A stretch of 62,331 nt of DNA, counting the filler. It is 5 parts of 5 records of this genome, joined end to end, with 100 filler letters (N's around TTAATTAATTAA, not from the genome) between each part and the next. Parts side by side here need not be neighbours in the genome. Positions count along the whole stretch, not along the records: positions 57,230 to 62,331 come from SRR20825010_6209; 4 more parts are not named here. One strand, given 5' to 3'. Numbering within the stretch: the stretch's first letter is position 1; every line of letters starts with the position of its first letter. This document shows, piece after piece, positions 16,207 to 62,331 of this stretch. A program made the position numbers and the translations under genes. Below the pieces are notes generated by a model. That model was given only the letters and a program-made list of their open reading frames with translations, had not been told where the DNA came from and made no database searches.

Positions 16207-16306
16207 NNNNNNNNNNNNNNNNNNNNNNNNNNNNNNNNNNNNNNNNNNNNTTAATTAATTAANNNNNNNNNNNNNNNNNNNNNNNNNNNNNNNNNNNNNN
16301 NNNNNN
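16207..16306. other. Artificial contig spacer
   Basis: N44-TTAATTAATTAA-N44 (stops in all six frames); composition changes abruptly across it. Confidence 0.98.
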
Positions 16307-27033: not shown

Positions 27034-27133
27034 NNNNNNNNNNNNNNNNNNNNNNNNNNNNNNNNNNNNNNNNNNNNTTAATTAATTAANNNNNNNNNNN
27101 NNNNNNNNNNNNNNNNNNNNNNNNNNNNNNNNN
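27034..27133. other. Artificial contig spacer
   Basis: N44-TTAATTAATTAA-N44. Confidence 0.98.
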
Positions 27134-41944: not shown

Positions 41945-42044
41945 NNNNNNNNNNNNNNNNNNNNNNNNNNNNNNNNNNNNNNNNNNNNTTAATTAATTAA
42001 NNNNNNNNNNNNNNNNNNNNNNNNNNNNNNNNNNNNNNNNNNNN
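41945..42044. other. Artificial contig spacer
   Basis: N44-TTAATTAATTAA-N44. Confidence 0.98.
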
Positions 42045-57129: not shown

Positions 57130-57229
57130 NNNNNNNNNNNNNNNNNNNNNNNNNNNNNNNNNNNNNNNNNNNNTTAATTAATTAANNNNNNNNNNNNNNN
57201 NNNNNNNNNNNNNNNNNNNNNNNNNNNNN
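57130..57229. other. Artificial contig spacer
   Basis: N44-TTAATTAATTAA-N44. Confidence 0.98.
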
Positions 57230-57265: not shown

Positions 57266-57348
57266 GAATAAAAGCACCATGTATCGCTCAAACACAAAAA
57301 GTCAAGATAAATTCAATGTTACAAATTTAACAAACTATAGGGTTTTTA

Positions 57349-57386
57349 ATCTAATTATTATTCATAATATTGTATTATAATTCTAA
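57349..57386. promoter_or_regulatory. Tandem ARG-box-like sites
   Basis: ATCTAATTATTATTCATA and ATTGTATTATAATTCTAA, each 16/18 to WNTGAATWWWWATTCANW, 2 bp apart. Confidence 0.45.
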
Positions 57387-57409
57387 GCAAAAGAACGAAT
57401 ACTTGCGAA

Positions 57410-57526
57410 ATGCAAAAAGTAATTAAAAAAATACAAACCATCTTAAGAGCGTTGTTTACTACAACTACTCCTTCTTATGTATTGGTTCCTGTACGCCACG
57501 TTCGCTTTCCTCGTCGTCGCCCGTAA
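57410..57526 (+). CDS. Putative arginine-responsive leader peptide (38 aa)
   Basis: MQKVIKKIQTILRALFTTTTPSYVLVPVRHVRFPRRRP-stop; five Arg codons in the last ten; directly upstream of the arg operon. Confidence 0.6.
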   Translation: MQKVIKKIQTILRALFTTTTPSYVLVPVRHVRFPRRRP

Positions 57527-57619
57527 GGGTGTTACGATTTTATGGAGTTAGGTGTGTCCAACTCCCCTCTTAAAAACAAATCATTTTTCAATATTATTAA
57601 TTTTTAATTCAGTAATTGA

Positions 57620-58249
57620 ATGCAAATACTTATTGCAAACGATACGCACATACCATATGCACAGACAATCTGTGATACCATTGATGAGTCCGCTAGACAG
57701 CGTGGCACTGGTATTGCAAAACGTACTCCTGAGTATATAACAACCAAAATTCAGAATGGTAATGCGGTAATTGCTTTGGAAGGTAATGAATTCGCTGGAT
57801 TTTGCTACATTGAAACATGGGGCCATGGAAAATTTGTAGCCAATTCAGGGCTAATTGTTCATCCAGATTTTAGAGGTCAAGGTTTGGCTACTAAAATTAA
57901 AAATAAAGTTTTTGAACATAGTAGAACTAAATTTCCAGATGCTAAAATCTTTGGTATTACTACAGGTTTGGCAGTCATGAAAATTAACTACGACCTTGGT
58001 TATGAACCCGTAACATTCTCAGAATTAACAGACGATCCTAGCTTTTGGAATGGCTGTAAAACATGTAAAAACTTCGATATTCTTACTAGAAACGAAGGGA
58101 AAATGTGCTTATGTACTGGAATGTTATACGATCCTGTTGAAAAAGAACAGAAAAAACAGAAACATAAATACGATTCTAAAGTATTTACCCGATTAAAAAG
58201 TATTAAACAGACGTTGTTTCTTAAAAAAGAAAAAGATAATAAAAAATAA
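57620..58249 (+). CDS. GNAT acetyltransferase (probable short N-acetylglutamate synthase, ArgA role)
   Basis: RGTGIAKRTPEY, VHPDFRGQGLA acetyl-CoA motif, FWNGCKTC; first gene of the arg cluster. Confidence 0.8.
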   Translation: MQILIANDTHIPYAQTICDTIDESARQRGTGIAKRTPEYITTKIQNGNAVIALEGNEFAGFCYIETWGHGKFVANSGLIVHPDFRGQGLATKIKNKVFEHSRTKFPDAKIFGITTGLAVMKINYDLGYEPVTFSELTDDPSFWNGCKTCKNFDILTRNEGKMCLCTGMLYDPVEKEQKKQKHKYDSKVFTRLKSIKQTLFLKKEKDNKK

Positions 58250-58288: not shown

Positions 58289-59470
58289 ATGAAAAAATTA
58301 GTATTAGCATACAGCGGAGGGTTAGACACCTCGTATTGCGCAAAACATCTATCTGAAAATGGTTACGAAGTACACGCTGTAAGTGTTAACACAGGAGGAT
58401 TCTCTAAAGAAGAAATTAAAAACATAGAACAGAAAGCTCTAGCGCTTGGTGCTAGCAGTTATACCTCTTTAGATGCCGTACAAACTTTTTATGATAAGGT
58501 TGTAAAATATCTTATCTACGGAAATGTACTAAAAAACAATACATACCCGCTTTCTGTTAGTGCAGAAAGAATTGTTCAAGCTATTGAAATTGTAAATTTT
58601 GCTAAAGAAAATAAAGCACAATATATTGCCCACGGAAGTACAGGTGCAGGGAACGACCAAGTTCGTTTTGATATGATTTTTCAAATTCTAGCTCCAGAAA
58701 TAGAGATTATTACTCCTATTAGAGATAATAAACTTTCTAGACAGGAAGAAATTGATTTCTTAAAATCTAAAGGCGTAAATATGGAGTGGGAAAAAGCTAA
58801 ATACTCCATAAATAAAGGACTTTGGGGAACCAGTGTTGGAGGAGATGAAACGCTTACTTCTCACCTATCACTTCCTAATGAAGCTTACCCGAGTCAGTTA
58901 GAAAACATGGGGAGTCAAAAAATTAAATTAAGTTTTACCAAAGGAGAATTAACAGCAATTGATGGTAAGAAAGACAAAGCCATCAACCTAATTGAAAAGC
59001 TTGATAAAATTGCTTCCTCATTTGCAATAGGTAGAGATATCCACGTAGGAGATACTATTATTGGAATTAAAGGAAGAGTAGGTTTTGAGGCTGCTGCTCC
59101 TATGGTTATTATCAAAGCTCACCATACCCTAGAAAAGCACGTGCTTACTAAATGGCAACAACAACATAAAGATTATTTGGCAAACTGGTACGGAATGTTA
59201 CTTCATGAAGGGAATTATTTAGATGAAGTAATGAGAAATATCGAAGCCTTTTTAACCGATGCTCAAAAAAATGTTACTGGAGATGTTTGGGTAACATTAT
59301 ATCCATATAGATTTTTTGTTGACGGAATAAAATCTGACCACGATTTGATGAATGCCAAATTTGGAAGCTATGGAGAGATGAACAAGGGTTGGAGTGCAGA
59401 TGAAGCAAAAGGATTTATTAAAATTAACGCTAACGCAGCCAAAATTCATCAAGCAGTAAATAATAAGTAG
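58289..59470 (+). CDS. argG: Argininosuccinate synthase
   Basis: LAYSGGLDTS, AHGSTGAGNDQVRFD, GIKGRVGFEA. Confidence 0.96.
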   Translation: MKKLVLAYSGGLDTSYCAKHLSENGYEVHAVSVNTGGFSKEEIKNIEQKALALGASSYTSLDAVQTFYDKVVKYLIYGNVLKNNTYPLSVSAERIVQAIEIVNFAKENKAQYIAHGSTGAGNDQVRFDMIFQILAPEIEIITPIRDNKLSRQEEIDFLKSKGVNMEWEKAKYSINKGLWGTSVGGDETLTSHLSLPNEAYPSQLENMGSQKIKLSFTKGELTAIDGKKDKAINLIEKLDKIASSFAIGRDIHVGDTIIGIKGRVGFEAAAPMVIIKAHHTLEKHVLTKWQQQHKDYLANWYGMLLHEGNYLDEVMRNIEAFLTDAQKNVTGDVWVTLYPYRFFVDGIKSDHDLMNAKFGSYGEMNKGWSADEAKGFIKINANAAKIHQAVNNK

Positions 59471-59617: not shown

Positions 59618-60592
59618 ATGATTAAAGCAGGAATTATAGGAGGTTCGGGATATACTGGAGGAGAACTGATACGAATTTTAATAAATCACCCACAAGTAGA
59701 AATTGACTTTGTGTACAGCACCACTCGCGCTGAAAAACCAGTTACCGATGCACATGAAGACCTATTGGGGGCAACCGATTTAAAATTTACAGGAACTATC
59801 AACCCAAAAGTAGATGTACTCTTTTTATGTCTTGGTCACGGAAATTCTAAAGCTTTTTTAGATACGCATACATTTTCAGACAACACTAAGGTTATTGACT
59901 TAAGTAATGATTTTAGACTGAAAAATGATGCAACTTACAATGGGAGAAAGTTTGTTTATGGCTTACCAGAATTACAAAAAGAAGCTATTAAGAATGCAAA
60001 CAATATAGCAAATCCTGGATGCTTTGCAACAGCCATACAGCTTGCTTTGCTCCCATTGGCAAAAAATAACCTATTAACAGAAGATATTCATATCAATGCT
60101 GTTACTGGGAGTACTGGAGCTGGAGTATCTCCTTCTGCAACCTCACATTTTAGTTGGAGAAACAACAACATATCTTGGTACAAACCTTTTACACACCAAC
60201 ATTTAGGAGAGATCAATCAAAGCATTGTGAGTCTCCAAGACAACCAACCAAATATTTTTATGTTACCACAACGTGGGAATTTTACAAAAGGGATTTTTGT
60301 AACATCTTACCTTAAATTTGAAAATAGTTTGGAAGAAACTTGGAATTTATACGAGGATTTTTATGTTATAGATCCGTTCACACATTTATCGGAAAAGGAA
60401 GTTCACTTAAAACAGGTTATTAATACTAACAATTGTTTTATACATCTTCATAAGCACGAAGACGTGCTGCTAATCACTAGTGTCATAGATAATTTAATAA
60501 AAGGCGCCTCTGGACAGGCAGTACAAAACATGAACTTACTTTTCGGTTTTAATGAAAGTGACGGACTAAATTTAAAAGGAAGTTATTTCTAA
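59618..60592 (+). CDS. argC: N-acetyl-gamma-glutamyl-phosphate reductase
   Basis: GGSGYTGGEL, IANPGCFAT, DNLIKGASGQAVQNMN. Confidence 0.96.
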   Translation: MIKAGIIGGSGYTGGELIRILINHPQVEIDFVYSTTRAEKPVTDAHEDLLGATDLKFTGTINPKVDVLFLCLGHGNSKAFLDTHTFSDNTKVIDLSNDFRLKNDATYNGRKFVYGLPELQKEAIKNANNIANPGCFATAIQLALLPLAKNNLLTEDIHINAVTGSTGAGVSPSATSHFSWRNNNISWYKPFTHQHLGEINQSIVSLQDNQPNIFMLPQRGNFTKGIFVTSYLKFENSLEETWNLYEDFYVIDPFTHLSEKEVHLKQVINTNNCFIHLHKHEDVLLITSVIDNLIKGASGQAVQNMNLLFGFNESDGLNLKGSYF

Positions 60593-60610: not shown

Positions 60611-61399
60611 ATGAAAGTTACCGTTATTGGATCAGGAAATCTAGGAAAATCAATCATTACCGGAATTGCATCCAGCGATTTATTTGATTCAAAGAACATC
60701 TTAGTAGCAGACAAATCAGATGAGAATCTGGAAATTATTAAAAAACAAGCTGGCGTATCTGTTACGTCCGACAATATTAAAGCAGTAAAAGAGTCTAAAT
60801 GGGTAATACTTTGTATTCAGCCTAGAATTCTTAAAATTGTTCTTAATGAAATTAAAGATCACATTACAGATGATCAAATTTTAATTTCAACCGTTACAGG
60901 AGTTTCTATTAGCGAAATCAATGAAATTGTTCCAAACAATAAAGTGATTAGAGCTATGCCAAATACTGCTGCAGTAAAACTACAATCTATGTCGTTTATC
61001 TGTGCTGATAACATAGAGCATGAAGATGTACATTTTGTAGAAAAAATGTTTGGAACCATTGGTAAAACAATGATAATTGAAGAGCGTTTAATGCAAGCTG
61101 CAACTGTACTTGGAGCTAGTAGTACTGCTTTTTTCTTACGTTTCTTACGTGCATTAACACAAGGAGGTGTACAAATGGGATTCCACCCTCACGAAGCGCA
61201 AGAAATTTCAGCACAAGTAGCTATTGGTGCAGCAGCATTAATTGAAGATGGTACACATGCCGAAGTTGAAGTAGATAATGTAACTACACCAATGGGTTGT
61301 ACTATTGAAGGATTAAATGCCATGGAGCATAACGGATTAAGTTCTGCAGTAATAAAAGGTATTATGGCAGCTTACAAAAGAATTAGTGATATTAATTAA
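60611..61399 (+). CDS. proC: Pyrroline-5-carboxylate reductase
   Basis: IGSGNLG, IRAMPNT, VTTPMGCTIEGL. Confidence 0.93.
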   Translation: MKVTVIGSGNLGKSIITGIASSDLFDSKNILVADKSDENLEIIKKQAGVSVTSDNIKAVKESKWVILCIQPRILKIVLNEIKDHITDDQILISTVTGVSISEINEIVPNNKVIRAMPNTAAVKLQSMSFICADNIEHEDVHFVEKMFGTIGKTMIIEERLMQAATVLGASSTAFFLRFLRALTQGGVQMGFHPHEAQEISAQVAIGAAALIEDGTHAEVEVDNVTTPMGCTIEGLNAMEHNGLSSAVIKGIMAAYKRISDIN

Positions 61400-61512: not shown

Positions 61513-62331
61513 ATGAAACTGTTTGATGTTTATCCATTATACAACGTTACTCCTGAGAAAGGAGAAGGCGTTTACGTTTACGATGAAAAAGGGCAAAAAT
61601 ATTTAGATCTTTACGGAGGTCATGCTGTTATTTCAATTGGTCATGCGCATCCTACTTATGTAGAACGAATTACCGAACAAGTAAACAAACTTGGCTTCTA
61701 CTCCAACGCCATTCAAAATCCACTTCAAGTGGAATTGGCAGAAAAGTTAGGAAGGCTTTCTAATTGCGAGGAATACAATTTATTTCTTTGTAATTCTGGA
61801 GCAGAAGCCAATGAAAATGCATTAAAATTAGCCTCTTTTCACACCAATAAAAAGCGGGTTATAGCTTTTAAAAATGCATTTCATGGAAGAACATCTGCTG
61901 CAGTAGCAGCTACAGACAATGGAGCTATCAATGCTCCAATTAATAATCAGCACAGCGTCACAACATTCCTTCCTTTTAACCAACTTCACTCTTTAGATTA
62001 TGAATTAGCGTTCGGTGACGTTTGTGCGGTTATTATAGAGCCTATTCAAGGTGTTGGAGGTTTAGACGAACCTACCACAGAATTTCTTCAAGGCGTTCAA
62101 CAATTATGTAAAAAATATAATGTTGTTTTGATTTTAGATGAAATTCAATCTGGATATGGAAGAAGCGGAAAATTCTTCGCTTTCCAACATCATGACATAG
62201 AACCTGACATAATAACAGTTGCTAAAGGTATGGGAAATGGATTTCCAATTGGAGGCGTATTAATCCATCCTAGATTTGAAGCTAAGTATGGAATGCTGGG
62301 CACCACCTTTGGGGGCAATCATTTGGCATGT
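61513..62331 (+). CDS. argD: Acetylornithine aminotransferase, 3' truncated by window edge
   Basis: MKLFDVYP, YLDLYGGHAV, CNSGAEANENA, FHGRT, DEIQSGYGR, AKGMGNGFPIG; missing from the ORF track because no stop lies in the window. Confidence 0.93.
   Translation, partial: MKLFDVYPLYNVTPEKGEGVYVYDEKGQKYLDLYGGHAVISIGHAHPTYVERITEQVNKLGFYSNAIQNPLQVELAEKLGRLSNCEEYNLFLCNSGAEANENALKLASFHTNKKRVIAFKNAFHGRTSAAVAATDNGAINAPINNQHSVTTFLPFNQLHSLDYELAFGDVCAVIIEPIQGVGGLDEPTTEFLQGVQQLCKKYNVVLILDEIQSGYGRSGKFFAFQHHDIEPDIITVAKGMGNGFPIGGVLIHPRFEAKYGMLGTTFGGNHLAC

Follow-up and report, generated by a model that had tools for sequence, protein, structure and literature searches.

The arginine operon at the right-hand end of the analysed window (the whole stretch of 62,331 nucleotides, filler included) is preceded by a short upstream open reading frame (uORF) ending in a cluster of Arg codons. 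An Arg-ending uORF of this kind occupies the corresponding place in 89 of 97 Flavobacteriaceae loci, and the arginine repressor ArgR (PF01316) was found in none of 151 genomes of this family. We consider it highly probable that the leader senses arginine through the decoding of its Arg codons. Provided that it does so, Rho-dependent termination would be a rather probable output, and the complete model, a stall attenuator which would read charged tRNA-Arg in place of ArgR and act through Rho, is the reading towards which we lean. The elements concerned, all on the plus strand, are:

57365..57372, +, likely -7 promoter element of the leader transcript, agreeing with five of the six fixed positions of TAnnTTTG, taken as consensus
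57398..57405, +, -7-like element of the initial annotation, 4 nt 5' of the ATG, weaker (four of the six fixed positions)
57410..57526, +, leader uORF of 38 codons with an RRRP-stop end, a variable N-terminal part and a CGY Arg cluster in its last 10 codons
57494..57520, +, sensor region with five CGC/CGT Arg codons, C- and pyrimidine-rich, a possible Rho loading site
57518..57531 (57513-57538 in this genome), +, hairpin P1, whose 5' arm is formed by the last Arg and Pro codons and whose GUAA loop holds the stop codon
57544..57565, +, hairpin P2 of 8 pairs with a 5' bulge and a UG(A/U/C)GU loop, a candidate RNA polymerase pause hairpin
57566..57619, +, AU-rich, G-poor spacer with the GNAT initiation region, not pairing specifically with the uORF
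57620..58249, +, GNAT acetyltransferase, first gene of the operon (Pfam PF00583; the PRK07757 match is weak and below cut-off)
58289..59470, +, argG, argininosuccinate synthase (Pfam)
59618..60592, +, argC-type semialdehyde dehydrogenase (Pfam)
60611..61399, +, proC, pyrroline-5-carboxylate reductase (Pfam)
61513..62331, +, argD-type class III aminotransferase, truncated at the window end (Pfam)

The gene order assigned by Pfam is hence GNAT, argG, argC, proC, argD, and the GNAT is, by its position, probably a short ArgA. G001, the nearest genome, whose GNAT is 100% identical, stands in for the genome of the window; there, argD is followed by proA, two proB-like genes, argF', argB and further genes, the proB-like genes lying adjacent to each other within the operon (L379:8575-10358). 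Genes proA and proB are present in some operons of the family and absent from others. The window itself consists of contigs joined by paired N-runs around a short AT linker, with gaps at 16207-16306, 27034-27133, 41945-42044 and 57130-57229. The last gap ends the left-hand sequence context of the arg locus, GC content being 0.42 to its left and 0.34 to its right; in G001 a different, divergently oriented gene is located 5' of the leader.

Conservation and codon choice of the arginine leader

The initial annotation had described an ORF of 38 codons with five Arg codons, all CGC or CGT, in its last ten positions, four Pro codons and a gap of 93 nt to the operon, and all of these details proved correct. 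The Arg codons concerned are codons 29, 32, 35, 36 and 37 (CGC, CGC, CGT, CGT and CGC), a sixth Arg at codon 13 is encoded by AGA, Pro is found at codons 21, 27, 34 and 38, and the stop codon ends 93 nt 5' of the GNAT ATG at 57620. Likewise, argG does use AGA for seven of its eight Arg residues, and the GC-rich patch is evident, the GC content amounting to 0.58 over the final 45 nt of the uORF compared to 0.27 over its initial 60 nt, 0.22 upstream of it and 0.12 immediately 5' of GNAT. Searches of Pfam and NCBIfam with the leader peptide yielded no match. One sequencing-run contig spans 57431-58286, the RNA origin of that run being a guess, and other runs cover scraps.

With respect to the start region our reading departs from the leaderless start suggested initially. 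Bacteroidota possess the -7 promoter consensus TAnnTTTG and initiate translation without Shine-Dalgarno pairing. The better box of the window is the one at 57365-57372, 37 nt upstream of the ATG; its 8-mer is common to the close relatives L002, L003 and L132 at equal distance, and the 8-mer at 57398-57405 was not seen in L002 or L003. Since the stronger box is shared in this way, the leader transcript of the window is probably leadered rather than leaderless. Within the family near-leaderless starts are nonetheless common, as a TAnnTTTG-like box followed by an Arg uORF is present in 41 of 97 loci and is spaced by 4-9 nt from the ATG of the first uORF in 38 of 97. A further conserved 16-mer at 57317-57332 is present too in L002, L003, L005, L132 and L150, and its minus strand reads as a TAnnTTTG box, probably the promoter of the divergent neighbour.

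To define the family set, the GNAT was located in 98 of 151 genomes and the upstream DNA of these 98 was collected; one locus with 38 nt was dropped, leaving 97. A uORF was accepted if at least two of its final six codons encode Arg and its stop lies 60-170 nt before GNAT. The 89 loci passing this filter compare to 4 of 97 when the reverse strand is read and to 4-10 of 97 after dinucleotide shuffling (20 shuffles), which bears out the conserved Arg-ending short ORF that the initial annotation had proposed to look for across Flavobacteriaceae. The enrichment of Arg is uniquely strong, with the exception of Pro (at least two Pro in the last six codons in 50 of 97). Upstream of hisG (30 loci, 29 parsed) the same filter returns an Arg-ending uORF in 1 of 29 loci, and a His-rich one in 28 of 29. 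Six of the eight misses harbour Arg-containing variants recognisable by eye, two (L175 and L176) none. Among the 89 leaders, which are about 25-39 codons long, the stop precedes GNAT by a median of 88 nt, and 74 end in RRP. As the ORF must not be defined by its own content, the RNA motif served as anchor for a frame test. Reading upstream from the Arg codon in P1, 88 of 89 loci keep its frame open for 21 codons, and the other frames are open in 22 and 28. Judged from these sequence comparisons, the ORF is real and under selection.

A pronounced bias is observed in the choice of Arg codons. The family leaders contain CGC 175 times, CGT 162 times, CGA 11 times, AGG 7 times and AGA 4 times, so that CGY accounts for 337 of 359 (94%), compared to 27% in operon genes (25 genomes) and 28% in 42 ORFs of G001, in which the loci scanned include one tRNA-Arg gene each of ACG, TCG and TCT. 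In family f15, all 23 of whose 23 loci possess the leader, CGG makes up 95 of 123 leader Arg codons but only 13 of 170 in the GNATs, and in genus g160 it makes up 52 of 60. A sensor based on decoding would be expected to retain the cognate residue while the synonymous codon varies from clade to clade, as seen here; so strong a synonymous bias points to decoding, not to the peptide.

Beyond the family, a slightly relaxed filter is passed by 65 of 79 named public loci (of 80 in total, 79 had sufficient flanking sequence), compared to 8-16 in the controls. They include Chitinophagaceae, Cytophagales and Sphingobacteriaceae, with endings such as VRR-stop and PRA-stop, and RRR-stop or VRR-stop ends leaders of other clades. 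A sample of the phylum contains the GNAT in 79 of 201 genomes; 70 of the 79 loci were tested, and a leader is present in 48 of these 70 (controls 7-12), a count which, like those above, includes related genomes that are not independent. Eight of the 22 misses belong to genus g160, six of them with a different leader. On this evidence the arginine leader is widespread.

ArgR represses arginine biosynthesis, and arginine is the textbook case of an amino acid controlled by a repressor and not by a leader peptide. The PF01316 search applied to the family matches 9 of 14 control genomes, Bacteroides thetaiotaomicron among them, and 87 of 201 genomes of the phylum sample, 85 of them strongly. Only two of the 79 GNAT genomes in that sample (G181 and G277) contain a strong ArgR; in both, argR lies directly before GNAT and there is no leader. 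The same arrangement is seen in L082, L085 and L099, which makes five such loci in all. As kin are not independent, we assign no p-value to the comparison of leader and argR. No Arg leader and no nearby argR were seen at the GNAT loci L175, L176, L058, L215, L221, L231-L233, L236 and L240. What stands of the Arg-sensing leader proposed initially is a conserved, translation-constrained Arg-codon leader, which would control the arg operon, in a lineage where no ArgR was detected; its arrest-peptide and Pro readings are not supported, as set out below.

In three family genomes (L380, L382 and L383) the first gene of the operon differs while the tandem leader is kept. Since the leader persists despite this replacement, the element goes with the operon and not with its first gene. 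The replacing gene (L380:550-1134, L382:642-1238, and in L383) encodes an unrelated protein of 194-198 aa, for which a weak GNAT match is obtained in L380 and no match in L382; it is a candidate alternative ArgA.

Hairpins P1 and P2 and the output of the leader

The initial description lacked the two hairpins, the absence of a terminator and the tandem-uORF form. In P1, 98.9% of the cells are paired over 4 pairs; one pair is changed from CG to AU in 4 of 89 sequences, which are probably related, and there Pro is exchanged for Thr with the pairing compensated. A U-rich linker leads to P2, in which seven of eight pairs show changes on both sides, while the loop and the GG/CC closing pairs are conserved at the sequence level. 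Alignment A1, which comprises 89 loci (9 were unmatched by the extraction pattern, and one row is mis-cut), has 96.9% of its cells pairing compared to 87.8% in shuffles and both-side changes in 85 cells compared to 22.5; slid registers score far lower, and nearly all of the covariation is carried by P2.

The covariance model built from A1 matches 68 of 101 genomes, once each, 64 of them with E < 1e-7. Because these matches are mostly training sequences, the informative result is the single copy per genome, and with one match per genome the model is usable for annotation. It also matches 28 of 36 named Flavobacteriales-type loci, with one duplicate of a training locus among them, as well as the window at 57506-57573. 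Weak matches are further obtained in G008 and G077, and one in G098 was dismissed as chance, lying antisense in an unrelated gene. In Rfam 15 the window leader has one chance match only (E 4.9), and none of 12 related loci reaches the gathering score. Docking of a GNRA loop into P2 was considered and rejected, since the changes of loop and receptor are not concerted. All five compensated inner-P2 changes at A1 column 83 (57552) convert GTG to ATG, a pattern which may be chance. Outside Flavobacteriaceae, a P2-like hairpin with a UACG(U/C) or UAUGC loop and a pyrimidine-rich tail is seen in L074, L076, L083, L088, L096, L101, L107, L110, L229 and L237; the shape of these loops resembles the UGNGU of the family.

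The sequence conservation of the P2 loop and its closing pairs would also suit an aptamer or protein site made up of P1 and P2, to which the ORF would be incidental, and the P1 stem could in itself force CGY and CCG codons. This reading is highly improbable given the open frame (88 of 89 loci, compared to 22 and 28 for the other frames), the swapping of TTG, GTG and ATG as start codons at a fixed place, and the persistence of Arg leaders with other codons in clades whose hairpins differ in sequence.

More weight, if still little, attaches to arrest of the nascent peptide by free arginine at the RRP-stop end. The fungal arginine attenuator peptide (AAP) is such a conserved peptide arrested by free arginine, and an arrest of the TnaC type had been proposed initially; TnaC or SpeFL could equally serve as model. 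The prevalence of the RRP ending, a leader length which would fill the exit tunnel and the 30-31 codons of the tandem second uORF in 32 of 46 loci are in line with it. However, among 76 peptides positions -5 to -26 carry 0.55-1.7 bits compared to about 4 for the last three, of which the last two belonged to the selection criterion, so that only the last 3-4 codons are conserved, and the terminal Pro is part of the 5' arm of P1. Moreover, where Pro gives way to Thr the RNA pairing is compensated, in several leaders the reading frame continues through the loop (RRPLGA, RRPFGV) with the stem kept, Pro is missing from the endings of other clades, and the strong synonymous bias suggests decoding. 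Peptide arrest is therefore quite improbable.

The Pro codons had in addition been taken as a sign that the leader might sense proline. A dual arginine and proline sensor would be in keeping with the G001 operon, which includes proC, proA and two proB-like genes, with the Pro enrichment noted above and with Pro in leaders of every clade seen. Yet leaders of operons containing proA have a mean of 2.25 Pro (n=8) and those without it 2.17 (n=18), Pro is kept where the operon shows no pro gene (L414, L416, L418, L419 and L421), the terminal Pro is accounted for by P1, and the internal Pro codons lack a strong bias. We regard proline sensing as improbable.

With a cognate-codon uORF and a hairpin over sensor codons and stop (1:2 type), the leader has the attributes of a classical attenuator up to this point. 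An intrinsic terminator before the first gene, however, is predicted in 3 of 89 arg leaders, all three unconvincing, compared to 28 of 28 his leaders; terminator-like sites in other clades amount to 1/23, 3/19 and 4/31, and the terminator scan of the window finds none in the leader. The hisG loci (L248-L277) show His-rich leaders followed by intrinsic terminators in 28 of 29 cases, most with a QA(R/K/S) ending. P2 was discarded as an intrinsic terminator, as no U-tract follows it. P1 was discarded as a weak one: its tail reaches only 4.5-4.7 U per 8 nt at best, and sensor codons as 5' arm would give the wrong sign. Nor was a mutually exclusive antiterminator fold found, the freed P1 arm having no conserved partner in 72 loci and the alternative fold of linker with P2 scoring -1.15 kcal/mol compared to -0.97 kcal/mol in shuffles. 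Lacking a convincing terminator and an antiterminator fold, the arg leader, as far as its sequence goes, resembles a leader-peptide attenuator but is not a classical one.

When a ribosome is made to occupy either the Arg codons or the stop in folding calculations (72 loci), P1 opens, but with the ribosome on the Arg codons P2 (0.62-0.66) and the GNAT start (0.51 unpaired) are unchanged, for which reason sequence alone does not reveal the output. Pairing of the uORF with the GNAT start in 38 single-uORF loci gives -9.9 kcal/mol for matched, -9.3 for mismatched and -9.3 for shuffled pairs. A hidden ORF opening at the GTG in P2 has no conserved frame or end (frames 21/33/35 of 89). The ends of the uORFs are C-rich (mean C 0.34 and G 0.20 over the last 45 nt in the family) and contain on average 9.8 YC per 45 nt compared to 3.4 in operon coding DNA. 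This C-richness does not single out Rho, as the His leaders with intrinsic terminators are equally C-over-G rich (280 C, 151 G) and CGY and CCN codons force C. The rho gene is present in 5 of 5 genomes tried, which is not discriminating. We favour Rho as output since the leader lacks an intrinsic terminator and a competing fold and does not pair specifically with the GNAT start, and since precedent exists: termination by Rho gated by a uORF is described for tnaC, speFL and cruR (PMC12360218).

We infer the following course of events. The uORF would be translated in the cell. When arginine is short, the ribosome would wait on the CGY codons, cover the C-rich end of the uORF and keep P1 open, and the operon would be expressed. 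When arginine is plentiful, it would terminate within the P1 loop and leave, P1 would close, and expression of the operon would be cut in the ribosome-free leader, the putative output being that Rho terminates a polymerase which has paused at P2. Where two uORFs are arranged in tandem, the first Arg uORF would gate initiation at the second through base pairing.

The same Arg-codon sensor could instead act through decay or processing of the mRNA, or through translation of GNAT by way of structure or a protein missed by folding, with polarity on the genes behind it. For decay, Salmonella speF offers a precedent involving RNase G, two Arg codons of orf34 switching the mRNA between RNase G-sensitive and resistant forms (PMC6386406), and cleavage could take place in the U-rich linker that joins P1 to P2. 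For translation, mycobacterial poly-Cys leaders act without terminators (10.1101/834739), and 24 of the 33 loci of genus g160 contain a second ORF that runs up to the GNAT start. On the other hand, pairing between uORF and GNAT start is no better than in the controls, the GTG in P2 opens no conserved ORF, and a stop about 88 nt from the GNAT start is too far for direct coupling. We therefore hold an output of this kind to be unlikely, though by no means negligible.

Tandem leaders and genus g160

The window harbours the single-uORF form. A second Arg uORF further upstream is called in 48 of 97 loci, in 47 of them together with the proximal uORF; the calls in L003 and L005 are false. The proximal uORF of the tandem starts with TTG in 20, GTG in 19 and ATG in 7 of 46 loci, its start lies 44-54 nt past the first stop in 36 of the 46, and its length is the one quoted above. 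Within 42 clean tandem loci base pairing is predicted between the 5' portion of uORF1 and the stretch preceding the uORF2 start (-11.2 kcal/mol for matched, -8.2 for mismatched and -5.8 for shuffled pairs), the own partner reaching a median rank of 8 of 42. The first Arg of uORF1 is codon 9 in 22 of 42 loci. A ribosome placed there raises the unpaired fraction of the uORF2 start region from 0.33 to 0.62 in folding, with a gain of more than 0.1 in 33 of 42 loci. In contrast, a ribosome stalled solely at the terminal Arg run of uORF1 leaves it virtually as it was (0.33 to 0.34); such a stall opens the uORF2 start only with a queued second ribosome.

Genus g160 shares its leader with the named Flavobacterium locus L052, a CGG leader of 23-36 codons being present in 32 of 33 loci. 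Two CGG codons in this leader (L308-L333, L183-L189 and L052) are spaced about 12 codons apart. The second ORF, which ends within about 15 nt of the GNAT start in the 24 loci mentioned, has its TTG start 47-58 nt after the first stop in 18 loci; it is Arg-poor and about 60 codons long. The pairing test did not separate matched from mismatched pairs in g160, and the output there looks translational instead. In all forms the off state would correspond to a proximal element free of ribosomes, which fits a stall meaning on.

A more far-reaching reading, possible but rather doubtful, is a phylum-wide replacement of ArgR by ribosome-relay attenuators, with a tandem AND gate, translational coupling in Flavobacterium and clade-specific tRNA-Arg isoacceptors. 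In about half of Flavobacteriaceae a near-leaderless uORF1 would have to stall to free the weak TTG/GTG start of uORF2, whose own stall would then block Rho, resulting in a two-step AND gate for arginine starvation. In Flavobacterium this first sensor would be linked to translational coupling, and the sensor of each clade would have shifted to a different tRNA-Arg isoacceptor. If true, this would be attenuation of a biosynthetic operon without terminator or antiterminator, organised as a cascade.

Relation to known systems

The gene list of Lopatovskaya 2010 is reportedly devoid of arg genes. In Flavobacterium psychrophilum leader attenuators are predicted for ilvE, hisG and pheA (PMC9723704 Table S7), and argG or argininosuccinate has no match in the nine supplements of that paper, as far as these were available. 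The available portions of PMC13009471, PMC4833913, PMC8632094, PMC6429828 and PMC12218461 contain no description of an arginine-biosynthesis leader in Bacteroidota. In searches of openly accessible full texts and of Rfam, neither this element nor a leader attenuator for arginine biosynthesis in Bacteroidota was met. The arginine leader, of which the initial annotation knew no description in Bacteroidetes, is apparently undescribed.

The leader is a candidate answer to how arginine synthesis is regulated in Flavobacteriaceae and other Bacteroidota lacking ArgR, which are abundant in sea and soil. As it is carried by cultured, genetically workable genera, it is directly testable. Since the same genomes use intrinsic terminators for histidine, it would constitute a second, different design of attenuation, and it would offer a handle on Rho and on transcription-translation coupling in Bacteroidota.

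With the classical attenuators (trpL, hisL, pheL, thrL, ilv) the arg leader shares a cognate-codon uORF before a biosynthetic operon, a hairpin involving sensor codons and stop, and the expectation that a stall means on. It differs from them in responding, as proposed, to arginine, in the lack of a U-tract terminator and of an antiterminator, and in the pairing at the start site of tandem loci.

With the uORF-gated Rho attenuators (tnaC, speFL/orf34, cruR, mgtL) it has in common the lack of an intrinsic terminator and, as proposed here, a ribosome at the uORF end which shields C-rich RNA; with orf34 it shares Arg codons, two in orf34, which report arginine. Those systems, however, control catabolic, polyamine or metal genes instead of arginine biosynthesis, and they mostly use a conserved arrest peptide, whereas here the peptide is unconserved and Rho putative. 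The mycobacterial poly-Cys sORFs, predicted in PMC1262725, are similar in their cognate codons, often leaderless start, lack of a terminator and position before a biosynthetic operon (10.1101/834739). Their poly-Cys tract, in contrast, pairs with the Shine-Dalgarno sequence of the next gene, while pairing is here confined to uORF1 and uORF2 of tandem loci. The rbfL uORF of Staphylococcus aureus likewise senses arginine via rare Arg codons, but there the stalled ribosome blocks the neighbouring ribosome binding site, so that a biofilm regulator is repressed; the effect is of opposite sign and the target not biosynthetic (PMC13009471).

Finally, ArgR and the fungal AAP serve the same pathway and signal. 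In contrast to the former, which was not found in the 151 family genomes, the leader is present in most of the family loci, and, in contrast to the latter, its conservation resides at the level of codon and RNA.
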